From positions 1 through 32,000 of the forward strand of contig NZ_LGHJ01000011.1 in assembly GCF_001306055.1 (NCBI RefSeq): DNA of 32,000 bases. The letters run 5' to 3'. Shown one piece after another: positions 7,506-23,828 of this stretch (positions are counted from its first letter, which is position 1; every line of letters starts with the position of its first letter). This DNA comes from Bellilinea caldifistulae. Lineage in GTDB: Bacteria; Chloroflexota; Anaerolineae; Anaerolineales; Anaerolineaceae. Made by a program: the position numbers and the translations under genes. Below the pieces are notes generated by a model. That model had not been told where the DNA came from and did not search any database. It saw nothing but the letters and a program-made list of their open reading frames with translations.

Positions 7506-7568
7506 GCAGAATACAGGGATGGAGTCCCTGTTTTTAGAAAACACTGCTGGTAAAGTGCCCATTGGAAG

Positions 7569-7612
7569 TGACTCACCAGGGACTCGAACCCTGAACCCAC
7601 TGATTAAGAGTC
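7569..7612 (-). other. Orphan 3' half of tRNA-Lys(CUU): att-site remnant
   Basis: The minus strand reads GA-CTCTTAA-TCAGT-GGGTT-CAGGG-TTCGAGT-CCCTG-GTGAGTC-A. That is an anticodon loop with CTT, the 3' anticodon stem, the variable loop, a full T-arm, the 3' acceptor strand and the discriminator. No matching 5' acceptor strand or D-arm lies upstream; that position is occupied by the integrase terminator. Confidence 0.7.
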
Positions 7613-7615
7613 TGT

Positions 7616-7645
7616 AAAAAATAAAAAGCCCGCCATTAAGCGGGC
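7616..7645 (-). terminator. Rho-independent terminator of the integrase gene
   Basis: On the minus strand: GCCCGC-TTAATG-GCGGGC followed by TTTTTATTTTTT, 28 nt after the integrase stop. Confidence 0.65.
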
Positions 7646-7672
7646 ATAAAGAGAAATACCAGTTAGTTTGGA

Positions 7673-8497
7673 TCATTGTGACATTGGCACGCTCAAGTTA
7701 ACCATCGGGAAGTACTGTCCTAAATCAACGGCCTCTATTGTTCGAGTGTAATACTCAACCATTCGAATATCAGACCACCGACCCGCAACCTGTACCAATC
7801 GACTCGGCGCGCCTGCCTTGATTGCCATTACTGCAAAAGTTCGCCGAAAATCATGCGGAGAGAGTTTTATACCAATTTTTTCTCCCCAGCGCCGAATGAT
7901 AACCCTCAAACCATCCCTGGTCACCTGGAAAAGCCGCTCGTCTTGCGGATTTCTGTATTCTATCCATTTTTGCAACGCATCTTTGGTCAAAGGTGAAAAG
8001 AAAACCCTTTCCCAACGACCACCTTTTACTCTCACAAGAATCTCTCTCTTCTCAAGAGCCAGGTCTTTCATGTTGATTGTAACAATTTCGTTCACTCTTA
8101 ACCCGGTATCCAAAGCCAGACTTGCAATCGCGAAATCTCGACATCCTTTTGAAGTAGTCAAATCAAATGAAGCGAATAACTCACGGATTTGATGTTCATT
8201 CAGAGTTCTGCCGGGTCTCGTTTTTTCTCTCTTAATACGCACTCGCAAAACTGGATGATCACCAATTTTCCACTTGACAAATTGCCGAATAATTCCGCAG
8301 GCAACATATTGACGAGAATTTCCCCACCCCGTTGAACGAAGAAAGCTTAATAAATCAATTGCAGTGCAAGACTCAATATCTACTCTTTCCAGAAATGCTT
8401 TCAATATTGCCCGATATTGTTCTTCTGTTTTCGAACTGAACCCCTTTTCAGCGAAGAACAATTCCATCTCGGTATGATATTGTGTGAAAGTTGACAT
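7673..8497 (-). CDS. Tyrosine recombinase / phage-type integrase
   Basis: ORF trimmed to MSTFTQYH (GGAGG 7 nt upstream). N-terminal SAM-like core-binding region (EEQYRAILKAF). Catalytic-domain motifs: LDTGLRVNE (Arg I), SPHDFRRTFA (H-x-x-R), GRWSDIRMVEYYTR (catalytic Tyr). Confidence 0.9.
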   Translation of the reverse strand: MSTFTQYHTEMELFFAEKGFSSKTEEQYRAILKAFLERVDIESCTAIDLLSFLRSTGWGNSRQYVACGIIRQFVKWKIGDHPVLRVRIKREKTRPGRTLNEHQIRELFASFDLTTSKGCRDFAIASLALDTGLRVNEIVTINMKDLALEKREILVRVKGGRWERVFFSPLTKDALQKWIEYRNPQDERLFQVTRDGLRVIIRRWGEKIGIKLSPHDFRRTFAVMAIKAGAPSRLVQVAGRWSDIRMVEYYTRTIEAVDLGQYFPMVNLSVPMSQ

Positions 8498-8605
8498 GGT
8501 TTTTCCTCCGCAATGAAGTGGTAATTTTTTGGTTTTACGATTCTGCCACCTCAAAACGGTTCTGAAAATTAAAATTTTTTGCTATACTATTAACCGAAAA
8601 CAAAC

Positions 8606-8701
8606 CAGCCCCACCGTTATTCCACAGTGAGGCCGTGATGCAGGCGTGGGGGTATGGATGATTTCAAATCATCCTAGCAAATTTTTTCACCGCCCGCAAG
8701 T
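8606..8701 (+). repeat. Copy A of a ~95-nt structured intergenic element (upstream of the nuclease gene)
   Basis: Shares ordered blocks with copy B at the same spacing: CAGCCCCACCG, GTGAGGC, TGCA, TAGCAAA, CCGCCCGC, AAGT. First to last major block is 84 nt here and 82 nt in copy B. The CCCCAC/GTGAGG helix is retained in both copies. Confidence 0.5.
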
Positions 8702-8721
8702 TAGTCTAATATCAGCAATCC

Positions 8722-9732
8722 ATGTTCATAATTTCACAAATACAGCAGTCAATACCAACGGTTGTTATTCGATTTGCGTTCCGTAACTCAACCATGGCCG
8801 GTCAAATTTTCAAAAATCCTCAAACCAAAATTGCATTTCCAATTCTCCTATTGTTTGGGGTAGTTACATTGTGCTGCGGGTTATTTACAATCGGCAGTGT
8901 CATCTTGCCTGCTCCCAGCCCAACGGCAACCATTACCCCAACATCCACCTCTACTCCCACACCAACCGAAACGAACACACCAACTCCAACCATCACCCCC
9001 ACCCCCACCATTACTCAAACTCCTACGGAGACCCACACCCCAACGATCACACTGACGCCGACCATCACATCTACTCCGACCATCTCACCCACCCCAACGG
9101 TGACTTTGCCCTCAACCTCTTTGAACTGCGTTCCTCAAAACACCAAACGAGAAACGGGCACCGTAACCCGCGTGATCGATGGTGATACAATTGATGTCCG
9201 CATTGGAAACCAGACTTTTCGAGTGCGATACATCGGTATAGATACTCCCGAACGGGGAGATTTCTATTTCTACCAATCCACCGAAGCCAACCGCCGACTG
9301 GTTGAAGGTAAAAAAGTTACCCTTGTGAAGGATGTGTCCGAAGTAGATCGTTATGACCGCCTGTTACGGTATGTCTTCGTGGGAGATGTTTTTGTAAACC
9401 ACGAACTGGTCAGGCAGGGATATGCGTATGCTTACACCTATCCCCCCGATGTTGCCTGCGCCGATATTTTCGTTGCCGCACAACGGGCGGCGCGCGAATT
9501 AGAGCGGGGATTGTGGAAACCAACACCTACCTATGCCCCTCCCCCTGCCGTCCTGCCTCCGGCTGGTGTCAGCAGCGGGAATTGCCATCCGTCCTATCCA
9601 GGTGTTTGTATACCGCCACCGCCTCCGGATTTGGATTGCAAAGATATTCCCTTCCGCCGTTTCAAGGTCTTACCCCCCGACCCGCACCGCTTTGACGGCG
9701 ATAACGATGGCATAGGCTGCGAGTCAAATTAG
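8722..9732 (+). CDS. Membrane-anchored/secreted thermonuclease (SNase) with C-terminal Excalibur Ca-binding domain
   Basis: TM helix (IAFPILLLFGVVTLCCGLFTIGSVIL) and a long TPTPTxT linker. SNase core VIDGDTIDVRIGNQTFRVRYIGIDTPE...DRYDRLLRYVF...GYAY. C-terminal C..YPGVC...DLDCKDI...DGDNDGIGCE (Excalibur). The start could instead be 8794 (MAGQIF). Confidence 0.85.
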   Translation: MFIISQIQQSIPTVVIRFAFRNSTMAGQIFKNPQTKIAFPILLLFGVVTLCCGLFTIGSVILPAPSPTATITPTSTSTPTPTETNTPTPTITPTPTITQTPTETHTPTITLTPTITSTPTISPTPTVTLPSTSLNCVPQNTKRETGTVTRVIDGDTIDVRIGNQTFRVRYIGIDTPERGDFYFYQSTEANRRLVEGKKVTLVKDVSEVDRYDRLLRYVFVGDVFVNHELVRQGYAYAYTYPPDVACADIFVAAQRAARELERGLWKPTPTYAPPPAVLPPAGVSSGNCHPSYPGVCIPPPPPDLDCKDIPFRRFKVLPPDPHRFDGDNDGIGCESN

Positions 9733-9790
9733 TGTTTGGTTTTGGTTGATGTTCTGCTAAAAAACAGATATATTTAAGCCAGACATAAAT

Positions 9791-9886
9791 CAGCCCCACC
9801 GCTGTCTCGGTGAGGCTGAGGTGCAACGCGGTGAAGGCGCGTTGCGGCAAAAACAAGCATAGCAAACTTTTGCCGCCCGCGCAAGT
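9791..9886 (+). repeat. Copy B of the ~95-nt structured intergenic element (upstream of the R-M/HerA operon)
   Basis: See copy A. Copy B also has perfect hairpins GCAACGCG-N7-CGCGTTGC, GGCAAAA-N15-TTTTGCC and GCCCGCGC-N14-GCGCGGGC. Confidence 0.5.
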
Positions 9887-9960
9887 CAACCGCAACGCGC
9901 GGGCGAATCGTTATCGAGTCTTGAATTTCACAAGTCAAATATCTGCACAGGGAACTTCAA

Positions 9961-11904
9961 ATGGAAGAAACAATTACACTGATACCCCCCGGTAAGATTC
10001 AATGTGTTGTTACAGGTAAACTTCGCCCTGATACACCTGAAGAGAATGTCCGGCAACGCATAGCGCGTAGCCTGTTAGAAGACTACGGCTACGATAAATC
10101 AGACATCGAAATTGAATTTACTGTTAATCTGGGAAGCAGCAAAAAGCGCGTGGATATTGCTATCTTTCCGCCACATGTCGAGCATAAACAAGAGAATATC
10201 AAAATCATTGTGGAGTGCAAACGGGAAGAAGTCCGCCCTACCGACCGAGATAACGGTGTAGGGCAACTCAAATCCTATCTTGCTGCCTGCCCTAATGCTC
10301 GCTTTGGGATGTGGATTGGCTCAGAACTCCAGGTCTGGGAGCGGCTGGTTTCGGATGCGGGAGAAGTATCTTTTGCCGAAGCTACTGACATCCCGCGTTT
10401 TGGATACGATGCCCCACAACCCATACGATTTGATGAACTAGTCCCCGCTCATGAAGAATTAATTGCCATATTCAAGCGTTGCCATAACTACATTTACGGA
10501 AATCAGGGATTACAAAAGGAACCCGCTTTTCAGGAATTGCTTAAGCTCATTTTCTGCAAGGTCTATGATGAAGACACTTCTCTCGGTGAAATGCGCTTTT
10601 TCATCGGCAACAATGAACGGCGTTCCGAAATCGGACAAAGGCGGTTGAAGCAGACAATAGATCAGTTGTTTGAAGACGTGAAAAACCGCTATCCGTATAT
10701 CTTTGCCCGAGATGAACAGATTCGCCTTGACAACCGGGTGCTGGCTTATGTTGTCGGCGAACTTCAACGCTACTCACTTCTGCAGACGCTGGCAGATGTT
10801 AAGGGTGCTGCTTATGAACAACTTGTTGGGAGTAATCTGCGCGGTGACAGAGGTGAATTTTTCACGCCGCGTAATGTCTGCGAAATGGCAACGCAAATGG
10901 CGCTGGCAACCTACCCTCGGGATAAATGGCTGAAACTCCGTATTCTTGACCCTGCTTGCGGAACGGGCGGCTTCTTGGTATCAGTAATGAATGTCTGGCG
11001 CGAATACCTCGAAGAAGTTCAGCGGGTGAAATGGAAAGACGAGAGCAAAGCTCTTGAAGAAACTGCCCGGTTGTTGCGAGAAACGGCTAATCAACACCTC
11101 GTAGGCATAGATTTCAACCCTGTTTTGGTACGGGCTGCGCAGATGAATTTAGTCATGCACGGTGACGGTTCGACCAACGTGTATCATGCTAATTCGCTTT
11201 TGCCCCCCGGAGAGTGGATAGCCGAAGTCGCAAAGCATATTCAACTTGGCACGTTCGATATTGTTATCACCAATCCACCCTTTGGCTCGAAGATCCCAAT
11301 TGATGATCCACATATCCTAGCACAATTTGAGTTGTCGACATTCGAAATGCAAAATGGAACACACCGCGCATCCATGCCACCAGAGCAGCTGTTTATCGAA
11401 CGCTGTCTACAATTTTTAAAACCCGGTGGACGCTTGGCAATCGTACTCCCCGATAGTATTCTCTCCAATCCCGGATTAGCGTTCATCCGCCGCTGGATTC
11501 TTCGGCGGGCCCGGATAATCGCCAGCATAGACCTGCCACAAGCAACTTTTGAACCCTATACAGGCACGCAAACCAGTGTATTACTGCTGCAAAAAAAGAC
11601 GGAAGAGGAAATACGAATTGAGCAGCAAGCAGGCAAGCCATTTGATTACGAGATTTTTATGGCTACACCTGAATTCGTTGGACATGACCGACGCGGCGAG
11701 ACCATTTATTTACGAACCCCTGAAGGCGAACTCATTCAATATGACGGCATTGCTAAGTTTGTCCGTCGCAATCCAAACGGCAAACTGATCACCGAACAAC
11801 GCCAGCAGAAAATGCGTGAAAAGTTTGACCAACTGCCTGAAGTGGTGCGCTACTTCACCGAATGGGTTTCCAAACCTGAACGAATGAGGTGGCTCAATGG
11901 ATGA
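9961..11904 (+). CDS. Fused PD-(D/E)xK nuclease-like domain + gamma-class N6-adenine DNA methyltransferase (type IIB/BcgI-A-like or HsdM-like)
   Basis: N-terminus: KKRVDIAIF...IKIIVECKRE, a D...E-x-K nuclease motif of the HSDR_N type. Methyltransferase motif I ILDPACGTGGFLV and motif IV DIVITNPPFGSKI. Its last 8 nt overlap the S-subunit start. Confidence 0.85.
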   Translation: MEETITLIPPGKIQCVVTGKLRPDTPEENVRQRIARSLLEDYGYDKSDIEIEFTVNLGSSKKRVDIAIFPPHVEHKQENIKIIVECKREEVRPTDRDNGVGQLKSYLAACPNARFGMWIGSELQVWERLVSDAGEVSFAEATDIPRFGYDAPQPIRFDELVPAHEELIAIFKRCHNYIYGNQGLQKEPAFQELLKLIFCKVYDEDTSLGEMRFFIGNNERRSEIGQRRLKQTIDQLFEDVKNRYPYIFARDEQIRLDNRVLAYVVGELQRYSLLQTLADVKGAAYEQLVGSNLRGDRGEFFTPRNVCEMATQMALATYPRDKWLKLRILDPACGTGGFLVSVMNVWREYLEEVQRVKWKDESKALEETARLLRETANQHLVGIDFNPVLVRAAQMNLVMHGDGSTNVYHANSLLPPGEWIAEVAKHIQLGTFDIVITNPPFGSKIPIDDPHILAQFELSTFEMQNGTHRASMPPEQLFIERCLQFLKPGGRLAIVLPDSILSNPGLAFIRRWILRRARIIASIDLPQATFEPYTGTQTSVLLLQKKTEEEIRIEQQAGKPFDYEIFMATPEFVGHDRRGETIYLRTPEGELIQYDGIAKFVRRNPNGKLITEQRQQKMREKFDQLPEVVRYFTEWVSKPERMRWLNG

Positions 11905-13393
11905 GAGAAACGTGCCTATTATCACCCGGGAAGAACTCCGACAGCAATTTATCGAATTGGGGTGGTGGATTTCAATCCCCCTGACTACCGTCCCTGCGCA
12001 CTGGTTGAATCAGGGGGAAAACAGGCTAGACGCAAACTATTATGCCCAGGAAGGCCAATCAGTCTTTAGGATTGTTGCTGATAGTGGATTCCCTTTGAAG
12101 CAATTAGGGGAAATAGCAAAGGCAATATGGTATCCGTCAAGGTTCAAAAGGACGCGAACCGATAGCACAAAAGGGATCCCATTCATTGGCGCTACAGAGA
12201 TCATTCAGTATAGACCGGAGACGAAATACTACATTTCCCCAAACTCAAACACCGAAATAGAAAACCTTATAGCCAAAGAAAACTCCATTTTTGTTACGCG
12301 CTCTGGGTCGGTTGGCAGAATCTCATTTTTCAGTAAAAGACTGCAAGGTAAAGCATTAAGTGAACATGTTATCAGAGTAGAGGTGGATGAAGAATCAGGA
12401 TACGTATATGCTTTTCTGTCTAGTTCTATTGGGCAGGGTTTAATACTACGGAGTGTATTTGGTTCATCCGTTTCTGAGATTGAACCCCACCATCTAGCAA
12501 GTGTCCCTGTACCACTTCCGTCCAAAGACGTTCAGTTAGAAATCCACAATCAGATCATGCGGGCATATGCCCTGCGCGACGAGGCCAATGACTTGCTGGA
12601 TGAAGCTGACAGTCTCTTACACGAGAAGTTAGGGCTGCCTATCTTCGATGAAAGCCTTGTACCCTACCTGCCCGCGCCGACTGCGCCACGCCTGCCTACT
12701 AACCGCCCCGAAATTCCCCATCCCAAAGCGTTTAGCATTTGGGCTTCTGAACTGTCAGATCGTTTTGACGCTTCGTTTCACGTGCCGGTTGCGAGAACGG
12801 TGGTCAAACTTCTGCACGAAGGGAACTTTGCGCCCGTGCAACTGGAAAGCATTGCATCTCACATTTTTATTCCCCCACGTTTCAAGCGTATTTACGTACC
12901 TAAAGAATACGGCGTTCCTTTTCTGCAAGGGTCACATCTGCCACAAATGCGCCCGTATGATCTGAAATACGTCTCGCTAAAAGTAAATGCAAAGCATATT
13001 GACAAATGTCTGATTAGGATTGGATATGTGTTGGCTACTCGTTCTGGTACCATCGGACGGATAGGGTTGGTGTCCTCATATATGGACAAGTGGGCAGCCT
13101 CCGAACACTTGTTGCGCATTGTGCCTGATAACAGCAGGGGACATCCGGGCTATATTGCCGCCTTTTTGATGACGCCTTACGGGCAGCATCAATTGACGGC
13201 AAAAATTTATGGCGGTGTTGTAGATGAATTGACTGAAAGTGATACCGGTGAAGTATGGATACCCAACGCTCCGATGGAGATTCAACAAGAAATTGGTGAG
13301 AAGGTGGTTCAAGCCTTTGAAAAAAAGGATGAAGCCAACGTCATAGAAGAAGCGGCCATCCGTAAGGTTGAAAAATTACTAGAAAATGGCTAA
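11897..13393 (+). CDS. hsdS: Restriction-modification specificity subunit (HsdS-like, two target-recognition domains)
   Basis: Two internally repeated TRD halves: ...FVTRSGSVGRISFFS...SEHVIRVEV...YVYAFLSS..G and ...VLATRSGTIGRIGLVS...SEHLLRIVP...YIAAFLMTPYG. Each is followed by a conserved coiled-coil spacer (RDEANDLLDEA / KKDEANVIEEA). Confidence 0.85.
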   Translation: MDERNVPIITREELRQQFIELGWWISIPLTTVPAHWLNQGENRLDANYYAQEGQSVFRIVADSGFPLKQLGEIAKAIWYPSRFKRTRTDSTKGIPFIGATEIIQYRPETKYYISPNSNTEIENLIAKENSIFVTRSGSVGRISFFSKRLQGKALSEHVIRVEVDEESGYVYAFLSSSIGQGLILRSVFGSSVSEIEPHHLASVPVPLPSKDVQLEIHNQIMRAYALRDEANDLLDEADSLLHEKLGLPIFDESLVPYLPAPTAPRLPTNRPEIPHPKAFSIWASELSDRFDASFHVPVARTVVKLLHEGNFAPVQLESIASHIFIPPRFKRIYVPKEYGVPFLQGSHLPQMRPYDLKYVSLKVNAKHIDKCLIRIGYVLATRSGTIGRIGLVSSYMDKWAASEHLLRIVPDNSRGHPGYIAAFLMTPYGQHQLTAKIYGGVVDELTESDTGEVWIPNAPMEIQQEIGEKVVQAFEKKDEANVIEEAAIRKVEKLLENG

Positions 13394-13420
13394 ACCCTTT
13401 TGGAATCGTGCGACTTAGGT

Positions 13421-14320
13421 ATGAAAAATCGCCCTTACTACTCAATCCGAACGGGTAAACACCCTCACACAAAATACAACCTTGATTTGTTAAGGCGGTT
13501 GTTTATAGAGGTGTATCGTAAATTCGAATGGGATGAGTACTTTCAAGAAGCATTTGGATATAGATGTGTGGATGCTTACAATGGTTGGGTATCAGGCAAT
13601 CTAGGTAGGGACATTGAGGCCATAGTTTTTTTGCATCTTAGAAAAGACTCGCTCTGGCCAATTGAGGAAAACTACATCCACTACTCCGAAGAAGACTTAT
13701 TTGATGTGATTGAGTTTTTATATGATAACGTTTCTAAGCCTGTTGATGGCTTTTATCACGACTACAATAACTGCGGTTGGCATTATAGTTCCTTTGATCA
13801 GAACGCCGGTAAGAAAGAGTTTCGGGAAGCGATTAACTCCATCCTAAAAGATTATAAAAGTGGATATGAGCTCAGTACAGAAGGGGAAATTCTTTCATTG
13901 CCCCAGCACGGATTAGAAGCGTTATTTGAGTCCGAATTACCTCATTATGAATCTGATAATGTTGAAAAGCGATTGGAAACAGCAATAGAAAAGTTCAGAC
14001 GCTATCATGCCACCTGGGATGAAAAAAGAGATGCAATTCGAGACTTAGCAGATGTATTAGAGTACCTTCGCCCGAGATTAAAAGAGGTTCTGAGTTCAAA
14101 AGACGAGAATGATTTGTTCAACCTCGCGAATAATTTTGGTATCCGTCATCATAATGCAAATCAAAAGACCGACTATGATAAAGAGATTTGGTATCCTTGG
14201 TTATTCTACTATTACCTCGCCACAATCCGGGCTTGTATTAGCCTGCTTAGCAAAGCGGGAAATGAAACATCAGAAAAGAGTATGAATGAAGTCTCTACGG
14301 ATGACGGTATTTACTTCTAA
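13421..14320 (+). CDS. Hypothetical protein (299 aa), no domain recognised
   Basis: The ORF track starts at a TTG (13400); I prefer the ATG at 13421 (MKNRPYYSIRTGKHP). Trp/Tyr-rich N-terminal half and a helical, charged C-terminal half. It lies 28 nt after hsdS and 45 nt before the ATPase gene. Confidence 0.6.
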   Translation: MKNRPYYSIRTGKHPHTKYNLDLLRRLFIEVYRKFEWDEYFQEAFGYRCVDAYNGWVSGNLGRDIEAIVFLHLRKDSLWPIEENYIHYSEEDLFDVIEFLYDNVSKPVDGFYHDYNNCGWHYSSFDQNAGKKEFREAINSILKDYKSGYELSTEGEILSLPQHGLEALFESELPHYESDNVEKRLETAIEKFRRYHATWDEKRDAIRDLADVLEYLRPRLKEVLSSKDENDLFNLANNFGIRHHNANQKTDYDKEIWYPWLFYYYLATIRACISLLSKAGNETSEKSMNEVSTDDGIYF

Positions 14321-14364
14321 AAGAGGAAATTTCAAAGTAATTATACGAACAGGAGGATGATGCG

Positions 14365-16071
14365 ATGATCATCGTATTAACAGACCGTCCGGGAAGAGAG
14401 GGGCTGTATGTCACTGCTGTAAAGCAAGAAGGTAGCAGTGATCTCCAATTGTATGATTACGTGCGGATTACTCCCCCAAACACTTCTTATCAAACACCTG
14501 AAAGCAAACGAGAATGGATTGGTCAGATCACACGACCCAATCTCAATGTTTCTATGGTAACCGATAATCCCTTTGATCCATCACTCATTCACGCATTGTA
14601 TCTAACCCAATCCCGATCTGATACGATGATTGAGATGGCCAAAACCATCGAAACTTGGGAAATTCATTTGCTGGGTGAATACGATGGTCATCGCTTAACG
14701 ACTCTGCGGCGCAGGCCGCAACCGGGTTCACGAGTAGAACGATTGGATAGAGAAACCACCCTAAAAGTCCTCGAACTTCCAAAGTACGATGAAAAACAAG
14801 TGAATGCTATTGGCTACTTACTCAATGCGGATGATGTCCCGCTTTGTGTTAACAAAAGTATTTTTCGACATCACATGATGATTAGTGGCGGTACTGGTTC
14901 AGGCAAGTCCAATACCGGTGCCAATTTGGTTTATCAAGCTGCCAGAATAGGCTTCACTGTCTTTCTATATGATGCAAAGCCTGATTACACACTAATTGAT
15001 AAGCCTAATTCAGATGAAAGCGTCAAAGATGTTTGGGATGAAATGAAAAAATACGGCCTGCAGCCCTTTGGAGCTGACAATCTGGTTCGGGTAGCAATCT
15101 ATGGAATCGGTCGCGCCAAGAATCTACACTACAAAGGGTATCAAGCAATTTTAAGTTTCCGCGCTTCTGATTTTGACGCAGAATGGTTGGGATCTTTGTT
15201 CTTTACCGGTAAAGCAGACTATAACCAATATGAAGAATTTGTCAGCGTTTGTAAGGAACTTCGTGAAACCAAAAGAGAGTACAGCCTGAAGGATGTTTTA
15301 GATGTGATTCGTCAACGAAGTGATGGAGACAAAAAGGAAGAAGAGGAAGGGAAGAAAAATTCCAAAAAATCTGAGCGAACCGTTCACAAACAAACAGCAG
15401 ATGCGATCATCCGCAAGGTAGAACGGAAACAAAAAACAATGCCTTGGTTGGACTCGCTAAATCAAGAAGTGAGCGAAGTAACAGAGAAACAAACTCAATT
15501 GCCCTTTGAACAAACGACCGGACTAGCAACAAAACTCAAAACGCAGCCCTATAGGGTAGACAATTTTATCAGCAAAGGCAAGATTGTCTATATTGATCTT
15601 GCTGACGTAGATGCCGACAGTTATGCGCTATTTTTGGGATATTTCTTTCGCGAAAATCAACGATACTTATCTCAAAATCCGCAATTTCGCTCTTTAGGGA
15701 TACTGGAATTCGCTGATGAAGCGCATCGTATCTTTACGAATGACACGCGATACAGCGATTTGCTCGAATTTGAATTCAATCGTACAATGATGGAAGGAAG
15801 ATCGTTAGGACATGGTGTCATTATCAGTTTACAAAACGCCAGTCAGGTCCCATCTAGTATTCTTAACAACATCAATTCTCATATTGTGATGAGACAAAAC
15901 AATCGAGAAGTGGCGAAATTTGCCACACAGACTATGGGAGTTGACTTTGCCGATCAATCAATCAGTCTAGCACCTGGGCAAGCATTATGTCGGATGTTTG
16001 GCTCTACCGCAACAGTTTTAGCCCAAATGGCTCCATCTCCCTATGAATTGGAGAGAAGCGATAATGTTTGA
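14365..16071 (+). CDS. HerA/FtsK-superfamily (DUF87-like) ATPase with N-terminal HAS-barrel-like domain
   Basis: Walker A HHMMISGGTGSGKSNTGANLV. Walker B GILEFADEAHRIF. Sensor-like VIISLQNASQ. The N-terminal ~150 aa has a beta-barrel-like pattern. There is an inserted Lys/Glu-rich segment (DGDKKEEEEGKKNSKKSE). Confidence 0.8.
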   Translation: MIIVLTDRPGREGLYVTAVKQEGSSDLQLYDYVRITPPNTSYQTPESKREWIGQITRPNLNVSMVTDNPFDPSLIHALYLTQSRSDTMIEMAKTIETWEIHLLGEYDGHRLTTLRRRPQPGSRVERLDRETTLKVLELPKYDEKQVNAIGYLLNADDVPLCVNKSIFRHHMMISGGTGSGKSNTGANLVYQAARIGFTVFLYDAKPDYTLIDKPNSDESVKDVWDEMKKYGLQPFGADNLVRVAIYGIGRAKNLHYKGYQAILSFRASDFDAEWLGSLFFTGKADYNQYEEFVSVCKELRETKREYSLKDVLDVIRQRSDGDKKEEEEGKKNSKKSERTVHKQTADAIIRKVERKQKTMPWLDSLNQEVSEVTEKQTQLPFEQTTGLATKLKTQPYRVDNFISKGKIVYIDLADVDADSYALFLGYFFRENQRYLSQNPQFRSLGILEFADEAHRIFTNDTRYSDLLEFEFNRTMMEGRSLGHGVIISLQNASQVPSSILNNINSHIVMRQNNREVAKFATQTMGVDFADQSISLAPGQALCRMFGSTATVLAQMAPSPYELERSDNV

Positions 16072-17500
16072 GAGGCAGATTGTCCCGATAACAAATATCC
16101 GTCTAAATGGTCATTTGCGCACTCCAGAGGCAAGCAAGATCGAAGAAATTGCTGAAAGTATCGCAAAAGTCGGTCTTTTGCATCCCTTAGTCTTGTCAAG
16201 CGATTATTATCTCTTGAGCGGATTACACCGTTTGGAAGCCTTGAAACTGCTAGGGTGGCAGGAAGTTGAATGCAAAATAGCTCCTTTTCCTCACGAAAGC
16301 CCCGAGGCATCTCTCTGTGCCCTGGATGAAAATCTCATGCGTCATTCGTTGACTGCCCTTGAACAAGCGGAGTATCTGCTCAAACGAGATGAGCTCTTAC
16401 GGGCTTTGGGAATGCGCTCTGGGCATGGCGGACAAATCTCTAATCAGAATGCGAGGAAGAACAGCCAAAACGAACCGGCAAATTTTGCCGCTTCGTTTTT
16501 CTCTTCCCAAGACCTGGCCCGAGAAATAGGAATTTCGGAAAGGACATATCGAGATCGTATATCGATTGCACGCAAGCTCAGCCTTGAGGAACGCAATTTG
16601 ATTCGAACAACACCCCTTGCAGACAAACCCGCTTTGTTACTTGAAATTTCCCGCATCCAAGACCCGCAGCGAAGACGAGCTGTTATCGAGATGATGTCGA
16701 AACAGACATCAAATTTATCTGTCCGAGAAGTGATACGCCAATATCGCATCCAAAAAGGCGAAATTCAAGCGGAACTTGACATCATCAAACCATCAAATTG
16801 GTGGACTTTCGGACGTCCCAAATGGCTGCAAGAACAGTTTCCGGGCAGCATCCCCGGCGAGATTTATGCCAATGCACTGTATTATTTTGCCCCCGAGCAG
16901 GGAATTGCTGCTGACGGGATGGCTGGAAGCGGAATGTTACGGCGGGTTTATACGGATCGACATCTTTGGCAAAAAAACCGACAATTGAACTTGGAAATCC
17001 ACCTTTTTGACCTTTTCCCAAAGCAACCGTGGGCTAGCAAATACAGCATTCAAAAACATGACATGACTAAACCGCTTCCTATTCAGGTGGATTGGCTTTT
17101 CATAGACCCGCCCTATTTTCGTACTGCTACAAACTTTTTAGAAGGTGAATTAGCCAAAACGCAAGATTACAACCGATATCGGTCAATAATGAGACAGGTG
17201 ATTGAAGCCGGGCGGGATTCCCTGCGCCCAGGTGGTATCTTCTGCTTGTTGATTGTACCTTATACGAATATCAACGACCCTGAAAATCCTTTTATCGATA
17301 TCCCAGCAGATATGTATCAACTGGGAATTGAAAGCGGCTTCAAAGTTATTTTTCGAGCATATGTTAGCCGTGGTGAACAGCAACGGCGGGCGGCCGGAAT
17401 GATGAACCTCAAAGCAAAGCGTTTGCGGAAAATGTTCGGGGATGTGTGCGAATTGCTCGTGTTTCGGAGAGAGGAGAGAAGTGATGTCCAACCGCTTTGA
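16064..17500 (+). CDS. ParB/Srx-like N-terminal domain fused to an amino (N6A/N4C) DNA methyltransferase
   Basis: Start chosen at MFERQIVPI (ATGTTTGA overlap with the herA-like stop). ParB motif LLHPLVLSSDYYLLSGLHRLEALKLLG. C-terminal AdoMet motif AADGMAGSGM, acidic HLFDL, and catalytic WLFIDPPYF. Confidence 0.8.
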   Translation: MFERQIVPITNIRLNGHLRTPEASKIEEIAESIAKVGLLHPLVLSSDYYLLSGLHRLEALKLLGWQEVECKIAPFPHESPEASLCALDENLMRHSLTALEQAEYLLKRDELLRALGMRSGHGGQISNQNARKNSQNEPANFAASFFSSQDLAREIGISERTYRDRISIARKLSLEERNLIRTTPLADKPALLLEISRIQDPQRRRAVIEMMSKQTSNLSVREVIRQYRIQKGEIQAELDIIKPSNWWTFGRPKWLQEQFPGSIPGEIYANALYYFAPEQGIAADGMAGSGMLRRVYTDRHLWQKNRQLNLEIHLFDLFPKQPWASKYSIQKHDMTKPLPIQVDWLFIDPPYFRTATNFLEGELAKTQDYNRYRSIMRQVIEAGRDSLRPGGIFCLLIVPYTNINDPENPFIDIPADMYQLGIESGFKVIFRAYVSRGEQQRRAAGMMNLKAKRLRKMFGDVCELLVFRREERSDVQPL

Positions 17501-18563
17501 CTTTGAGGGATTGATCAACCGTTCCAAGCGATTTTCCCGCGATGAGTTTGTCGCAAATTTTGGCGGAATTGTGGAAGATGTATCTGCCATGCTGGCAAGT
17601 GACTTATCCCGTAAGGCAATTGCCGAGGCTCGCGAATACATCGAATCCAAAGGTGAAGAGTTATTGCCTAACCAGATGCCACGACTTCAAAGGTATGATT
17701 TTGGAAATTTGGAGTCCGCTTCTGAATTATTAGACGGTAAAGTAGCCGCTGTAGATGGTACCCCTGTTCTGCCACTTCAAAAGTATTCATTTGGTCAGGC
17801 TTTGTGCGTTGGTATAGGTAGCCGTTCGTATGTACGTCCGCTGGAAGATGTTCTACACGGCTATACAACCCAAGCAATAGTTAGGGGACTGTCTCACGAA
17901 AAAAGCGAGGATATGAAAGCCTTTTTCACACAGCTCGAAGAAGAAATTGCTGGCATCTCTCTGACTGCTTACATGAGGTACTTCGAGTCTGTTCATGCGT
18001 TGGAAATCAGCGAGCCATATATCTTCTGTGACGGAACCTTAATCTATCAATGGCTGAGCAACATAGAAATTGGCCGAAATCTATATAAAAAGCTGCTCAA
18101 AGAAAAAAAGGTTATTGGGGTTATCAAGAGCTTGAAAGAGAGTGTTCTTCTTTCTTGGTTGGGACGTGCCCTCAAAAGTGGCGAAGTGTTCTTCGCCCAA
18201 ACCTTTTATGAACATGTCGAGCGACAATCTACGGCACAACAGAGAGAAATTCAATGGCTGAACGACCAGGAATTTGTCCAAGAAGCTAAGCAAATCTGGC
18301 GCGGTGTTTTCAAACCTCGCCAAAAAGCCTTTGGTTTTGAAGTTCATCTGGATCATATAGCTCCAATGTTGCGGATTATGGTTGCTGACTGTCAGATGAA
18401 CCATCTGGGACATGAGATTCCCTTTCTGCTGAATACGGTTGATAAAGAGATTCGCAACTTCTTCAAGAGCAAAGTTTTGCAAACGCAAATTGCAGCCCAA
18501 CTTTCCGACTTATCGGAGAACATTTTTTTTGAAGAAATGGAAGAAAGACTTTTTAGAGAATAA
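17484..18563 (+). CDS. NurA-like nuclease candidate (partner of the HerA-like ATPase)
   Basis: Start at MSNRFDF (GAGGAG upstream; 17-nt overlap with the preceding gene). The motifs KVAAVDGTPVL and PYIFCDGTLIY resemble the two conserved DG(S/T) acidic motifs of NurA domains. It is adjacent to a HerA-type ATPase. The assignment rests on motifs and context only. Confidence 0.45.
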   Translation: MSNRFDFEGLINRSKRFSRDEFVANFGGIVEDVSAMLASDLSRKAIAEAREYIESKGEELLPNQMPRLQRYDFGNLESASELLDGKVAAVDGTPVLPLQKYSFGQALCVGIGSRSYVRPLEDVLHGYTTQAIVRGLSHEKSEDMKAFFTQLEEEIAGISLTAYMRYFESVHALEISEPYIFCDGTLIYQWLSNIEIGRNLYKKLLKEKKVIGVIKSLKESVLLSWLGRALKSGEVFFAQTFYEHVERQSTAQQREIQWLNDQEFVQEAKQIWRGVFKPRQKAFGFEVHLDHIAPMLRIMVADCQMNHLGHEIPFLLNTVDKEIRNFFKSKVLQTQIAAQLSDLSENIFFEEMEERLFRE

Positions 18564-18571
18564 AACAGCAA

Positions 18572-18593
18572 GAGAGGGCTTTTCTGCCCTCTC
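18572..18593 (+). terminator. GC hairpin just after the operon stop (weak terminator)
   Basis: GAGAGGGC-TTTTCT-GCCCTCTC lies 9 nt after the stop. The trailing sequence CTGCTTTCC is only moderately T-rich. Confidence 0.4.
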
Positions 18594-18595
18594 CT

Positions 18596-18628
18596 GCTTT
18601 CCGTAGTTCACGGATACCCTCACGAAGT
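18596..18628 (+). other. Degenerate, inverted partial copy of the 5' half of the neighbouring tRNA
   Basis: GCTTTCCGTAGTTCACGGATACCCTCACGAAGT on the plus strand. Compare the tRNA sense strand (minus strand): GCCTCCGTAGTTCAAGGGATAGAACAGCACCCTCACGAAGT. Exact blocks: CCGTAGTTCA (10 nt), GGATA, ACCCTCACGAAGT (13 nt). Confidence 0.65.
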
Positions 18629-18674
18629 AAATTCATCATACTCGCTATCCCTGAAAATTTCAAGCCCTTCCAAC

Positions 18675-18703: not shown

Positions 18704-18714
18704 CGGCAAGCGGG

Positions 18715-18786
18715 CGCCTCCGGCGGGATTCGAACCCGCATTCACACTTCGTGAGGGTGCTGTTCTATCCCTTGAACTACGGAGGC
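18715..18786 (-). tRNA. tRNA: anticodon CAC (Val) in the canonical register, but with an Arg(ACG)-like body and an atypical anticodon arm
   Basis: Cloverleaf read by eye: acceptor GCCTCCG/CGGAGGC; D-arm GTTC-AAGGGATA-GAAC; anticodon arm GCACC-CTCACGA-AGTGT (C31.A39 mismatch, G37); 4-nt variable loop; T-arm GCGGG-TTCGAAT-CCCGC; discriminator G. CCA is not encoded. Confidence 0.8.
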
Positions 18787-18828
18787 ATGACACTTGCCGA
18801 GGTCACCCTGGGCGGAGTTGCACCGCCC
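18787..18828 (-). repeat. tRNA-proximal copy of the intergenic hairpin module
   Basis: Plus strand: ...CACTTGCCG-AGGTCACCCT-G-GGCGG-AGTTGCA-CCGCC. It has the same order as the modules at 22833-22883 and 24543-24595 (TTGC, TCAC(C)CT, then a stem with loop AGTTGCA). Confidence 0.55.
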
Positions 18829-18892: not shown

Positions 18893-19162
18893 CTACACAC
18901 TCTGCTCGGTCAGCAGTTTCACCGCGGCAATGTGCTTGCAGGGTTTCTGCCGCTTGGTGAAGTCCGGGCAGGTACAAGCCCATGTGCCGTTTTTGGTGAC
19001 CATGTATTCATGGGGTTTCCCGCTCATCGTGGAATTGACCACCCACGCAATTCCGGGAATAAAGACGATGACGGTAAGCTGTTTCTGAATCAGCCCCATC
19101 ATCGCCCGGTAGGCCCGTGCGTTTTGGGGGTCGTCCAACAAGGCATCGCTGGTTTTCGACAT
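18893..19162 (-). CDS. SWIM zinc-finger protein
   Basis: Trimmed to MSKTSDALL (AAAGGAGG 9 nt upstream). SWIM signature WACTCPDFTKRQKPCKHIAAV (C-x-C-x(n)-C-x-H). Confidence 0.75.
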   Translation of the reverse strand: MSKTSDALLDDPQNARAYRAMMGLIQKQLTVIVFIPGIAWVVNSTMSGKPHEYMVTKNGTWACTCPDFTKRQKPCKHIAAVKLLTEQSV

Positions 19163-19210
19163 GGCAGTTGTCCTCCTTTTCCCGGTGCGCCGCACCACAC
19201 CGGGAGAGTA

Positions 19211-19450
19211 TTAGTCTCCCCGGTGCAGCGGGGTTCTGAAAGGTTTGCCAATTGACTTGATGACGGAAATCGGCTGGCCGTACACAATCCCACCATCAGC
19301 AGAACGCCAGGCGTGGGTCGTGTACAACCGCCTGCCCCGTCCCAAGAGCCTCATCCACACCACCCAAAGTTCATCACTCAGGTCAGTGACGATTGTGATG
19401 ACAAAGGTGCTTTTACCAATCCTGACGATTTCGCCCACTTCCGGTCTCAT
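19211..19450 (-). CDS. Hypothetical small protein
   Basis: ATGA start/stop overlap with the upstream gene implies translational coupling. The last ~6 codons run into a conserved leader hairpin, so the true stop or extent is uncertain. Confidence 0.5.
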   Translation of the reverse strand: MRPEVGEIVRIGKSTFVITIVTDLSDELWVVWMRLLGRGRRLYTTHAWRSADGGIVYGQPISVIKSIGKPFRTPLHRGD

Positions 19451-19812
19451 GGCGCATCCTCGATTTGAGCGGGTTCTTCTTCGTCAGTCAGCACCGCGCC
19501 GCAGTCGAGGCAGTGGACTTCCTCTTTCAGGTCGTCCCATACCTCCCCGGCGGAGTAGTGATACCCGCCGGTGGTGACAGCAGTGGTGCGCCGGTGAGGA
19601 CATTCTTCCTGCTGGTGCAGGTAGGCATCGGTCAGGTAGCGGATTTCATCGTAGACATGCTGGTTGAGCGCATCTGCCAGATGATCGGACAGGTACTCGA
19701 TGAAGTTCCGCCAGTCTTTGGGTTTCTCCCGCCGATAAGCCAATGCGTAGAAGATGTCCTCCTCCGTAACGGTGAGGCTGGCAACAATGTTGCCCGGTGT
19801 GATGGATACCAT
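19447..19812 (-). CDS. Hypothetical protein (121 aa) with C-terminal CxxC pair
   Basis: GGAAGGAGG 7 nt upstream of the ATG. Protein-like acidic composition. ...ECPH...HCLDCG... Confidence 0.65.
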   Translation of the reverse strand: MVSITPGNIVASLTVTEEDIFYALAYRREKPKDWRNFIEYLSDHLADALNQHVYDEIRYLTDAYLHQQEECPHRRTTAVTTGGYHYSAGEVWDDLKEEVHCLDCGAVLTDEEEPAQIEDAP

Positions 19813-19978
19813 AGCAATCCTCCTTCCCCCGGCGCGTCCCGCACCGCTCCGGGGAATGTGGTGATTCCCCGTGCGGGCGGGTTGATGGGAAAAGAAAGGT
19901 GCAGCGTTTTGCAGGCGTATGTAACCATGTTAAGGTGCAGAAAGTCGGCAGGGGCGGGGTGAGGCCCCTGCCTTTGCG

Positions 19979-20773
19979 CTAAACCGCTCCGTCCCCAACG
20001 GCGGGCTCTGCCAGCCCGCCGGCGATCTGATTGAACTTCACCAGCAGGTCATCCCGCAGGAAGGTCAAATGCAGATTGCCGTTGCCGTAGCGTTCCCACT
20101 TGAAGTACTCGGTCTCGCCCTTGCGGGCTGAGGACAGGCCGTCTACCAGCGGGCTGCTGTACGAATCGAACGGGAAGGGCTTGCCGTCCAGCAGGTGAAA
20201 GATTTTATCCACCTGAATCAGGTGGCGGCGGGGTCGTGGATAGATGTTCACATAGAAGGGCGTTTCGTGAACCAACCCTTCCAGGATGATTTTCTTCCCC
20301 ACACTCACCCGCCCGTTCTTCTGGTTGGTCTTGTACTCGTCATGCCAGCCTGCTCCGGGGCGAAGGAAGTCAAAGGCTTCGCGAATCATCTCCGCAAAGA
20401 GTTCCTTTGCCGCTCCACCGGCCAGCAGTTCCATGATGGCTTCCTCGCTCGGCTCAGGGATGTTTCTTATCCCCTGCCCGTTGCCTTCCAGAAACTGCTC
20501 GAAGCGTTCCAGCCGAGAGACGGACAAGACCTTTTCCACCCCGCTGGCTCCCAACAAAGCCTGCCAGGTCGAGCGTTTCAACTCCACCAGCCGGTCATCG
20601 CGGAACATGACTGCCCGGTAGGATACTGCCGAGCCAATCCCGGCGTTCTCTGCCGCTTTCAAGACAGCCTCTAACTCCCGGCAGTGGTACTCGATGGCGG
20701 CTTTGGTCTGCCGGTAAGCCGAAAGCACCTCGCTGACCGTGTAGGGTTTTTGGATTTCGCTAAAAACAGACAT
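19979..20773 (-). CDS. Hypothetical protein (264 aa)
   Basis: The listed 327-aa ORF is trimmed to MSVFSEIQKPYTV (GAAGGAGG 7 nt upstream). The removed N-terminal extension translates the structured leader. Any resemblance to DUF4942-type proteins is only a vague recollection. Confidence 0.7.
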   Translation of the reverse strand: MSVFSEIQKPYTVSEVLSAYRQTKAAIEYHCRELEAVLKAAENAGIGSAVSYRAVMFRDDRLVELKRSTWQALLGASGVEKVLSVSRLERFEQFLEGNGQGIRNIPEPSEEAIMELLAGGAAKELFAEMIREAFDFLRPGAGWHDEYKTNQKNGRVSVGKKIILEGLVHETPFYVNIYPRPRRHLIQVDKIFHLLDGKPFPFDSYSSPLVDGLSSARKGETEYFKWERYGNGNLHLTFLRDDLLVKFNQIAGGLAEPAVGDGAV

Positions 20774-20952
20774 GGTTTTCCTCCTTCTCCCGCCGTCTGC
20801 ACCCGGCGGGAAACTGATGTGTTTCCCCCGGTGCAGCGGGGTTGAAGGACGATTGGGACGGTTGCGGTATTCGCCTGTTAAGGTGCGGTGCAAACACCCT
20901 TGCGGGTGGTATTGCCGGATGGCGCAGGCAGGTAGCCTGCGCTTGTTTGAAA

Positions 20953-21360
20953 TCAGGCGCATTTCTTTTCGGCAATCTTTCGGATGGTGTACAGCACTCC
21001 AGAGATGAAGTCCTGGTCATCCCACTCGGCATTGATCCGTTCAACAACCTTGTCCAGCCCGTTTTCAGCCCAATATAGTTGGAACGCTAGAGGCAGCCGG
21101 TTTCGGACAAGACCGTACTGCAAAGCTGAGTAAATGACATACTCTCGTGAAAACGGTATAGAGTTGGCGAGCCGTTTTTCTATTTCTTGCAAGGCTTTCT
21201 CTATGGAGATTTCATGAATCACAATTGTGACAACACCTTTTTCCCGCCTCTCAATGTGAAAGCCGTTTTGCAAGGCTTTTTCTCGCAAGCGAAAACACTC
21301 CCAACCGTCTTTACACTCCTGCATTGACCCGCCATAATATTGAGATTTTCGCATTGCCAT
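20953..21360 (-). CDS. Hypothetical protein (135 aa)
   Basis: AGAGGAGG upstream of the ATG. Balanced composition in a region where spurious frames are Arg/Pro/Ala-rich. Confidence 0.65.
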   Translation of the reverse strand: MAMRKSQYYGGSMQECKDGWECFRLREKALQNGFHIERREKGVVTIVIHEISIEKALQEIEKRLANSIPFSREYVIYSALQYGLVRNRLPLAFQLYWAENGLDKVVERINAEWDDQDFISGVLYTIRKIAEKKCA

Positions 21361-21813
21361 CGTTTTCCTCCTCTGCCCCTGTCCGTGACCAGGGGCGAAT
21401 CTTGTGGATACGCCCCGTCACGGCGGGGAAAAGAGAAGGTTGAGAAAATGCGCCTGATATTCACCTGGTAAGGTTCGGAATGCGTTGTTTGGGCAGCCGC
21501 ATCCCTGCCGTTCCCACGTACGACTTTACCGGTGGTGCATTTGCACTCGCGGAAGTCTCGGCACTATTGTCGGAGCCGTGCCGCCCGGATGTTCCTGTGG
21601 TCGCTCCGGTCTGTCCGGCGTCCCGGTCTTTTGCTATCGCGCTCCTGGCGTGCGCTCACGCACAGCGGATAAGTGCCTAGCAAGTGCGTGGAATGGACTG
21701 GTTAAGGTGCAGTGCCAGATCAATCGCTCCGGCGGGCAGGAATTGGCGGTTAGAGCCGGACTGGGTAAGCCCGGCTCGTCCCCGCAGGGGGGTGCAGATG
21801 ACGGTCAATCGGA

Positions 21814-22626
21814 CTAGCCAGCGTAGGCGGCTTGTAGTGCGAGGAAGGCGCGCGCCATGCGCTGCAAGTGGACGTTTTCAGGCTTGCCTTGCGGGTCGAA
21901 GCCCTTGCCGTCCGTGTTGGCGCACCAGCGCACCCAGCCCTGACCTACCGGCCCGGACTGCCACACTTCGGCAATGGTCTTGTCCTTCTGCTTGCCGAAG
22001 TGGATGACCGTTTGCCCGGGGTCGGCCAGTTCGCCTTCCCCAGCCGGTTCAGCAGCGGCGGGAGCAGGCTGCGGTTTCGGCGCAGGGGCAGGTACAGGTT
22101 TTGGCGCATACGCTTTGCCATTACCGTTGCCGTTCGGGGCGGGTTGGAAGTCCTTGTGTGACCGCAAACCCAGATACACGCTTTCCTGGAAGCCGATGTT
22201 CGACACGGCATTCCCCAAAGCGTTGGTAATCGCCCCTTTCATGGCGTAGGCAATGTTGGCGTTCTCGCTCGCACCGGTGGCATGCACGGAGCAGTTGTAC
22301 TGGATATTCCCGTCAACGAGTTTGTACCAGAAGCGCAGGTGGGTGAGAATGGCCGCATACACGCCGTACTCGTTGCCCTTTGCGTTGGTGCGGGACTCGT
22401 AGCGGTATTCCAGATTGGCAGGGTCGTACTCATACCCCCAGCCCAGACCGCACAACCCGAACACATGGTTGAGGGTTTTCCTCATCCAGTTCGGGTCAAT
22501 ATCGGTTAAGTCAACCGCTCCCGGCAGTGCCTTGTACGCCCCGGCGGGCAGTTCTTGATCCAACTGCTGGATGGCTTCTTCCAGCGTCAGACCGGTCAGG
22601 GTGAAGATGTTGGAAAGTGTGGACAT
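21814..22626 (-). CDS. Rad52/22-family single-strand annealing protein (phage recombinase-like)
   Basis: GAAGGAGG upstream of the ATG. DPNWMRKTLNHVFGLCGLGWGYEY...ANIAYAMKGAITNALGNAVSNIGF matches the Rad52/Sak-type pattern (...kgA.TdAlkra...G). A Pro/Ala-rich linker leads to a small C-terminal domain. Confidence 0.65.
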   Translation of the reverse strand: MSTLSNIFTLTGLTLEEAIQQLDQELPAGAYKALPGAVDLTDIDPNWMRKTLNHVFGLCGLGWGYEYDPANLEYRYESRTNAKGNEYGVYAAILTHLRFWYKLVDGNIQYNCSVHATGASENANIAYAMKGAITNALGNAVSNIGFQESVYLGLRSHKDFQPAPNGNGNGKAYAPKPVPAPAPKPQPAPAAAEPAGEGELADPGQTVIHFGKQKDKTIAEVWQSGPVGQGWVRWCANTDGKGFDPQGKPENVHLQRMARAFLALQAAYAG

Positions 22627-22832
22627 GGTAAAAACCTCCTTCGTGAGATTGTTTCACGCCCCCGTCCGCAGCCGGGGGCAAACGAGTGTGTTGCCCTGCT
22701 GCGTCAGGGGAGTACCTGAACGGCCTCGCTCCACCGCTCACGCTTGACCGTCAGCGGCAGAGGGAGACCGTCCAGGCAGAAGGCTTTACCAGTCCCTGTC
22801 CCTTCGCCCTGCTTGATTGACCGTTTTCACCT

Positions 22833-22883
22833 GTTAATGTGCTGCCCCTTGCGGGGAAATCACCTGCCCGGAGTTGCACCGGG
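22833..22883 (-). repeat. Complete copy of the intergenic hairpin module
   Basis: Plus strand: GTTAATGTGC-TG-CCCC-TTGC-GGGG-AAA-TCACCT-G-CCCGG-AGTTGCA-CCGGG. Confidence 0.6.
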
Positions 22884-22938
22884 TAACCTCGTCAGGTGGA
22901 GTTTTCAGATGGGCAGGGCTGGGTAGCCCTGCCAAGTG

Positions 22939-23214
22939 TTACTCGCTCGCCTGAAATTCGGAAATCTGCGTCCGCCATATCAACTCCAACAAGGGAGTGA
23001 CCTGGCTCTGCCAGTCCGGGACTACCTTCGTGAGGCATTCCAGACACAAGGCGTCTCCATCCACCACAGGGACGGGACGCAGGGGTAAGTCGCTCAGACA
23101 CATATCGCAAATGACCTCGTCCGCCGCCAGAGTCGGGCCAACAACCTCGACATCGCCATAATGCAAAATATAGGCGGGGCGTTCTTCGGGTTCCCAAAGG
23201 GTAATCGTTGTCAT
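22939..23214 (-). CDS. Hypothetical small protein with CxxC...CxxC (zinc-ribbon-like)
   Basis: AAAGGAG upstream of the ATG. ICDMC...CLEC. It is the first gene of the leftward gene string, next to the operator. Confidence 0.6.
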   Translation of the reverse strand: MTTITLWEPEERPAYILHYGDVEVVGPTLAADEVICDMCLSDLPLRPVPVVDGDALCLECLTKVVPDWQSQVTPLLELIWRTQISEFQASE

Positions 23215-23818: not shown

Positions 23819-23828
23819 GGGGCAAGAG

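Follow-up and report, generated by a model that had tools for sequence, protein, structure and literature searches.

We have analyzed a window of 32,000 nucleotides of Bellilinea caldifistulae DNA (positions 1 to 32,000 of contig NZ_LGHJ01000011.1) and found two overlapping genes at 9961-13393 that probably encode an autonomous type IIB-like restriction-modification (R-M) enzyme of the BcgI/BsaXI kind, i.e., a pair formed by an RM subunit and a specificity (S) subunit that would cleave DNA as well as methylate it. The first gene (M, 9961-11904, forward strand) codes for a 647 aa RM-type protein in which a nuclease domain, a helical connector, a gamma-class N6-adenine methyltransferase (MTase) domain and a C-terminal tail follow each other, and the second (S, 11897-13393, same strand) for a 498 aa specificity subunit. 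The open reading frame (ORF) table places them with an overlap of 8 nt (ATGGATGA), just as the original prediction for this DNA had it. The same prediction proposed that the pair may be a complete R-M system of type IIB, similar to BcgI. In favor of this proposal, M is homologous to BsaXI over the nuclease, connector and MTase regions, its catalytic residues are conserved and the two genes travel together with no conserved partner, while nuclease activity, stoichiometry and cleavage at both flanks of the target are what we infer for the pair by analogy with characterized enzymes. What the sequences themselves show is how the domains are arranged, that M is related to BsaXI, that the catalytic residues are retained, that the two-gene cassette is autonomous and mobile, and that target recognition domains (TRDs) have been swapped in S.

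Enzymes of type IIB combine an N-terminal PD-D/ExK nuclease and a gamma MTase with an S subunit carrying two TRDs, assemble as 2RM:1S, need no partner and cut at both sides of a bipartite site (PMC4081073). In the Bellilinea M protein a PD-(D/E)xK nuclease domain occupies residues 1-150 (9961-10410), as delimited by Pfam, an AlphaFold2 (AF2) model, Foldseek and conservation, so that nuclease and MTase are located in one chain. The short motifs noticed before, VDIAIF (residues 64-69, including D65) and IVECKRE (residues 83-89, including E85 and K87), are indeed there, and they fall within a match to the Pfam family HSDR_N_2 that covers residues 26-121; since this match has E=3.7e-19, the nuclease-like motif is, by this measure, beyond chance. 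The AF2 model of residues 1-154 had a predicted local distance difference test score (pLDDT) of 92 and an alpha-beta-beta-beta-alpha-beta core. When this model was compared with the PDB by Foldseek, BsaXI was the sole match at E<=1e-3 (1.5e-4), followed by a REase-like protein, a fragment of HsdR and Cas4. Family profile and structure model were needed here, as a single-sequence search of the PDB with the N-terminal 160 aa gave no significant match. With profiles, hhalign aligned the N-terminus of M to BsaXI 51-122 (probability 74%, E=2.7e-5), and HMMER gave 6.7 bits (conditional E=1e-4) for the two N-terminal domains.

In all the alignment registers the putative catalytic residues D65 (10153-10155), E85 (10213-10215) and K87 (10219-10221) fall on D90, E105 and K107 of BsaXI. 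In that enzyme the replacement by alanine of any one of E73, D90, E105 and K107 abolishes cleavage, these being the four residues of the endonuclease domain for which this is the case (PMC11997821). The equivalents of three of them are thus intact in M, and for the fourth there is a conserved glutamate, E52 (10114-10116), within two residues of the position of E73, where the register is ambiguous. A fifth putative catalytic residue is Q102 (10264-10266). We scored the conservation on the best 150 of 960 cluster representatives (clusters at 50% identity, E<=1e-3), which are 36-90% identical in the nuclease domain. E52 was found in 95% of them, D65 in 98%, E85 in 98%, K87 in 97% and Q102 in 99%, with the neighboring positions 50 and 86 free to vary. 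Because these residues are retained at 95-99% over variable neighbors, the data indicate that the active site is intact and under purifying selection.

The rest of the chain follows the same plan, nuclease, connector and MTase distal to it. The helical connector (about residues 157-278, 10429-10794) was delimited by the alignment to BsaXI and by helix prediction; helices are predicted at residues 157-292, in a low-confidence model, and the alignment begins at residue 164, equivalent to BsaXI 210 and hence within the multi-helical connector (193-348) of that enzyme. The N6-adenine MTase domain extends over residues 279-549 (10795-11607; Pfam N6_Mtase, E=2.5e-33), with motif X (EFFTPR, residues 299-304, 10855-10872) upstream of motif I (DPACGTGGF, residues 330-338, 10948-10974), the order characteristic of the gamma class, and motif IV (NPPFG, residues 438-442, 11272-11286) further on. 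Motifs I and IV had been correctly located from the sequence before. The closest solved structure to M, that of the RM subunit of BsaXI (8w0p), a type IIB enzyme, was found in the PDB with E=2e-38 by the single sequence and 9.2e-49 by a family profile of 53 sequences; this alignment spans residues 164-552 of M and 210-628 of BsaXI, i.e., connector plus MTase. The MTase region matches type I HsdM structures as well. BsaXI was also the top fold match of a full-length model of M (E=3.8e-18, 628 columns aligned), which was built from 15 close homologues and used solely to rank fold matches. Like the known RM + S enzymes of type IIB (BcgI, BsaXI, BaeI and BveI), M has nuclease, connector and gamma-class N6-adenine MTase in one chain, and it is accompanied by a separate two-TRD S protein and by neither HsdR nor ATPase as part of the pair. 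Its length of 647 aa and its plain, short C-terminal tail resemble the BcgI group, whereas to BsaXI it is only about 24% identical. It also differs from the known type IIB enzymes in that its S is long (498 aa).

Relatives of M numbered at least 7962 at E<=1e-10 (8000 candidates scored), and the HSDR_N_2 plus N6_Mtase architecture was present in all of 120 relatives among the matches listed; those that had a name in their source went under generic ones, namely type I M protein, N-6 DNA methylase and restriction endonuclease subunit M. We compared the gene neighborhoods of 80 metagenomic loci with relatives at 44-89% identity; 34 of these loci include 2 kb or more of upstream sequence, and 35 include as much on the downstream side. 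M was found in 80 out of 80 and S adjoined it in 75-77. All-against-all clustering of the 657 ORFs of these loci yielded no third conserved family, and no homologue of any of the four genes that follow S in Bellilinea was detected in any of the 80. The next most common neighbors were tyrosine integrases (6 loci) and IS1595 transposases (5 loci), and overall the pair was flanked by integrases, transposases or housekeeping genes. Ten large neighbors were scanned with Pfam; none was a superfamily 2 (SF2) helicase or HsdR, and they included two AAA_13/SMC-type ATPases, a DNA polymerase A, an RNase H-like protein and housekeeping enzymes, plus one protein with no Pfam match. The AAA_13/SMC-type ATPases, of about 800 aa, adjoin the cassette on the same strand in two of the 80 loci (L051, 2375-4780, and L074, 4183-6561), too rarely for a core partner of M and S, and could have an accessory role. 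In a 22-kb Skermanella plasmid M and S stand alone, with an integrase on one side and a ParDE toxin-antitoxin pair on the other. The neighborhoods thus contain no conserved separate MTase, HsdR or ATPase partner, and the surroundings of the pair in its close relatives are in agreement. Because only M and S recur in the 80 loci, with integrases and transposases at their flanks, the comparison indicates that they are an autonomous, mobile two-gene cassette.

The S subunit was described before as a protein with two TRDs placed after M, and two Methylase_S stretches in Pfam agree with this. TRD1 covers about residues 51-200 (12047-12496, forward strand), a central conserved region about residues 201-300, and TRD2 about residues 301-475 (12797-13321, forward strand). 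PADLOC recognized this gene as mad5, Specificity_I and Specificity_II, and a sequence search of the PDB with S gave no match. S is thus a separate HsdS-like subunit, and its two TRDs have a mosaic history: in most of the relatives whose M is 85-89% identical, TRD1 is only 12-52% identical over conserved regions of S that keep 60-96%, and TRD2 is common to some relatives and not to others. At the nucleotide level, TRD1 (12030-12480) is replaced with respect to relatives that have an M gene 76-78% identical. This pattern is that of classical TRD swapping, a natural shuffling by which, to judge from the identities, the specificity is being diversified. In one relative (L129, 10943-13543), with an M 88% identical, the S gene is split by the insertion of a DDE transposase and this copy of the cassette is decaying.

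Swapping of TRDs in the S subunit fits a restriction system and not a housekeeping methylase. It bears on the possibility that the pair is a solitary (orphan) methyltransferase, which methylates for purposes other than defense and keeps the nuclease domain as a relic. Such an explanation would agree with the database names, merely "N-6 DNA methylase" or "type I M protein", and with the absence of a separate endonuclease gene. However, a relic would not hold the E, D, ExK and Q residues at 95-99% across sequences that are about 36-90% identical. Besides, the cassette is mobile, being associated to integrases and transposases, and is found in defense islands, and TRD swapping is typical of defense systems, whereas the specificity of housekeeping methylases is fixed. 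We consider this explanation quite unlikely.

Several observations weigh against an autonomous type IIB-like enzyme. The likeness of the nuclease domain to that of BsaXI is weak when taken alone, with 6.7 bits by HMMER, 74% by hhalign and a Foldseek TM of about 0.42, and for the first glutamate more than one register is possible, with E50 or E52 of M aligned to E73 or E75 of BsaXI. The full-length AF2 model is of low confidence (pLDDT 56). M has neither the knob nor the paddle of BsaXI, in which paddle mutants are inactive, although both elements are also lacking in the enzymes of the BcgI group (PMC11997821). Finally, the nearest sequence families in NCBIfam are MAD2 and MAD5, which belong to the methylation-associated defense system (MADS), and in MADS defense needs mad3-4 and mad6-8 despite the presence of MAD2 and MAD5 (bioRxiv 10.1101/2023.03.30.534895). 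Because a homologous M and S pair is insufficient for defense there, the autonomous reading has to be taken with caution.

MADS, from Pseudomonas aeruginosa SMC4386, consists of eight genes coding for a helix-turn-helix regulator, a MTase, an OLD-type ATPase, a DUF4276 protein, an S subunit, a kinase, a DptG-like protein and a HerA-like protein, of which the MAD6 kinase, the DptG-like MAD7 and the HerA-like MAD8 are mandatory in the MacSyFinder model of its authors (bioRxiv 10.1101/2023.03.30.534895). MAD2 resembles M and MAD5 resembles S, and the MADS pair methylates a bipartite motif. The MAD2 model spans residues 11-634 of M, including the nuclease-like domain, with 605.5 bits for a cut-off of 720, and the MAD5 model gave 381.1 bits on S for a cut-off of 400. 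In Bellilinea M and S overlap, unlike in MADS, where mad3 and mad4 intervene, and we found no MADS-type kinase, DptG-like protein, OLD-type ATPase or DUF4276 protein among the ORFs of the window. There is a HerA-like ATPase gene downstream of S (14365-16071), but its match to the PADLOC mad8 model (2.9e-14) is weaker than that to generic HerA, reflecting only the shared HerA ATPase fold, and NCBIfam gave no MAD8 match for it. Matches on Klebsiella and Streptomyces plasmids were inspected as possible MADS operons and turned out not to be MADS. Since the scores are below the cut-offs, M and S overlap, the other MADS genes are missing and the relatives are two-gene cassettes, the comparison indicates that the pair is related to MADS without belonging to it.

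The similarity raises the possibility that M and S act as a MADS-like sensor, which methylates and reads methylation while restriction is left to other proteins, encoded elsewhere or in the downstream cargo, the nuclease-fold domain serving for DNA binding, regulation or recruitment of partners. MAD2 and MAD5 are the nearest families over the full length of both proteins, the additional genes are essential for defense in MADS, and directly 3' of S there is a variable cargo slot (see below). We nevertheless regard a sensor of this kind as rather unlikely: both scores are under the equivalog cut-offs, the window contains no MAD3, 4, 6 or 7, neither the 80 loci nor the plasmids have a conserved third gene, and the catalytic residues are strongly conserved, which pure binding would not need. 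A variant in which M and S would be a minimal licensing module of the MADS type, whose readout of methylation, with or without cutting of its own, controls an exchangeable downstream effector, appears very improbable to us. The effectors would here be the PDC-S32-like gene and the HerA-ParB/MTase-NurA cassette, and in a related Chloroflexota MAG the DUF6978 and DUF1828/1829 proteins. If it were true, the island would be a plug-and-play platform, a sensor plus an exchangeable effector, and not three unrelated systems.

Two other R-M types were compared with the pair. The type I core (M2S1, as in EcoKI and EcoR124I) has in common with it the MTase fold, the order of the motifs, the two-TRD S and an expected bipartite target. 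However, no HsdR gene accompanies M and S in the window or in near relatives, M has HSDR_N_2 in place of HsdM_N, and the pair lacks a motor and hence translocation-dependent cleavage. The absence of HsdR had been pointed out before and it stands: no SF2 helicase plus nuclease HsdR is present among the ORFs of the 32-kb window, in which the only two ORFs of more than 650 aa outside the operon code for a DUF11 protein and a WD40 protein. Membership in type I was discarded on these grounds, as no HsdR was found in the window or beside the related cassettes and Pfam detects no HsdM_N in M. Type IIG (MmeI/BpuSI-like) was discarded too, its specificity residing in the single chain and that of the pair in a separate two-TRD protein; the PADLOC models for IIG match only the MTase part of M (residues 242-624).

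We thus favor the two-gene type IIB-like enzyme, which would work as follows. By analogy with BcgI and BsaXI, two of the 647 aa RM subunits would bind one S subunit, whose two TRDs would recognize a bipartite target. In host DNA one adenine per half-site would be methylated by the gamma-class MTase domains. Foreign DNA that is unmethylated would be cut by the N-terminal PD-(D/E)xK domains (E52, D65, E85, K87) at fixed positions flanking the target, with no need of an ATP-driven motor. In type IIB enzymes such cutting releases a short fragment and requires Mg2+ and usually AdoMet. The genes that follow S may be co-transcribed cargo and would not be required partners.

These are four genes on the same strand, so that the region at 9961-18563 appears as an operon of six co-directional genes with spacings of -8, +27, +44, -29 and -17 nt. 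The third gene (13421-14320) codes for a 299 aa AbiJ_NTD4/PDC-S32-like protein, the fourth for the 568 aa HerA-like ATPase already mentioned (14365-16071), the fifth (16043-17500) for a 485 aa protein made of ParB_N plus a small MTase, and the sixth (17484-18563) for a 359 aa NurA-like protein; the assignments come from ORF and Pfam analysis, together with PADLOC for the third, and the start codons of the third and sixth were refined using database copies of identical proteins. It had been suggested that the nuclease domain of M might be inactive and that HerA and NurA could replace HsdR as motor and nuclease in one hybrid system of six genes, in which M and S would mark self DNA. That the genes are densely packed on one strand and lack a strong internal terminator would be in favor of it, as would the precedent of MADS, where M and S work with a HerA-family ATPase, and the gap of 44 nt between the third and fourth genes, given which the HerA cassette is here probably reliant on upstream transcription.

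The genome comparisons speak against this idea. From the 196 database relatives of the NurA-like protein we traced 36 loci in GTDB species genomes, and in none of the 36 was a homologue of M, S or the AbiJ_NTD4/PDC-S32-like gene found within 10 kb of the HerA cassette. A HerA gene adjoins the NurA-like gene in about 28 of these loci, with the ParB/MTase gene between them in about half, although it is absent from many cassettes of Poribacteria. Pfam and its conservation as a unit delimit this three-gene cassette at 14362-18563 (forward strand). Relatives with a NurA-like protein 75 and 59% identical have only the three genes, adjoining integrases or other R-M or DISARM-like genes. With the 75% relative (L037) the nucleotide homology runs from 14362, 3 nt 5' of the ATG of the HerA gene, to the stop codon of the NurA-like gene at 18563. 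The blocks of homology, 9951-13373 for M and S and 14362-18563 for the HerA cassette, end exactly at the cassette borders. The cassette also has a putative MTase of its own, the fifth gene, whose MTase part is a small S-adenosylmethionine-dependent domain with a DPPY motif. As for the third gene (PADLOC PDC-S32, 9.5e-15; a weak AbiJ_NTD4 match in Pfam), its family has more than 2100 members, about 283 aa long and frequent in cyanobacteria and Chloroflexota, and its homologues are found stand-alone in unrelated contexts (three contexts were checked). None of the 36 plus 80 related loci, nor any of the nearest relatives, has M and S, the third gene and the HerA cassette together. The pattern indicates that the six genes are three independent modules, the last four being separate cargo of a defense island. 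The six-gene hybrid is thus unsupported, because the modules occur apart and the slot after S is variable; with the catalytic residues of M intact, and M and S lacking the other four genes in 80 of 80 loci, we find it hardly credible.

The original prediction also had terminators only after 18563. The strongest hairpin (18567-18598, 13 pairs) does follow directly the last gene, but it has no T-run on the forward strand, and the 16 terminator-like matches of the region, including weak internal ones, are not above the 10.9 +/- 3.7 of shuffled sequences. Neither promoter nor terminator scans gave anything above shuffled expectation, and the scans do not settle the transcript structure. Co-transcription of the last four genes with M and S is plausible, there being only 44 nt before the HerA gene, and functional coupling would not follow from it. 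The case invites caution: dense packing on the same strand in a defense island is not equivalent to a single system.

The HerA-ParB/MTase-NurA cassette itself, which we also found in Cyanobacteria, Poribacteria, Armatimonadota, Gemmatimonadota and other metagenome-assembled genomes (MAGs), often adjoins integrases or other R-M or DISARM-like genes and is a candidate for an uncharacterized defense system. No PADLOC model exists for the NurA-like protein, a search of the PDB with the profile of its family gave no match, and in the literature searched we found no description of a defense system formed by HerA, NurA and a ParB-methyltransferase. With its conservation across phyla, its location in defense islands and its absence from PADLOC, this cassette is the more unusual item of the region.

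The setting of the genes is that of a horizontally acquired island. The G+C content is 41-49% over most of 8-19 kb (52% in 9-10 kb), compared to 55-59% in most of the flanking sequence. To the left of M and S, Pfam identified a tyrosine integrase (7673-8554, reverse strand), a rve transposase and a 336 aa secreted nuclease of the staphylococcal nuclease (SNase) family (8722-9732, forward strand). This nuclease starts with a hydrophobic segment and continues with a long repeat linker rich in Thr and Pro, the nuclease domain and an Excalibur-like C-terminus. A tRNA-Val gene (18712-18787, reverse strand) is located directly to the right of the island. When the integrase side was compared with the tRNA-Val side for att-like direct repeats, only short, chance-like matches appeared, and the integrase is about 28% identical to those found beside related HerA cassettes, a figure that is uninformative. 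A Chloroflexota MAG (L130) has the same integrase-SNase-M-S backbone, with 72.5% nucleotide identity over 5.9 kb (window 7568-13359), and shares a right-end segment of 73 nt at 86% identity (18569-18640), which overlaps the hairpin described above. The genes that L130 has between S and this right end are of DUF6978 and DUF1828/1829, in place of the four of Bellilinea. The SNase at the equivalent position in L130 is shorter. Because L130 shares the backbone and the right end and differs in between, the comparison indicates that the stretch 3' of S is a variable cargo slot, a further point against the six-gene hybrid. Beyond the tRNA-Val (19000-27000) the G+C is again 55-59%, and a DUF4942 protein (19979-20962, reverse strand) and a second tyrosine integrase (25849-26667, reverse strand) were found; this part may be another integrated element.

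M and S look like an ordinary, uncharacterized R-M enzyme of an already known kind. Members of the family resemble incomplete type I systems because annotation pipelines call one gene "type I M protein" or "N-6 DNA methylase" and the other "subunit S". The full-length likeness to MAD2 and MAD5 suggests that MADS itself may be built around a type IIB-like core. If the pairs are autonomous type IIB-like enzymes, the censuses of defense systems undercount complete R-M systems, and the family would offer a large, still unexploited source of double-cutting enzymes like those employed in 2b-RAD, their specificities having been shuffled in nature.

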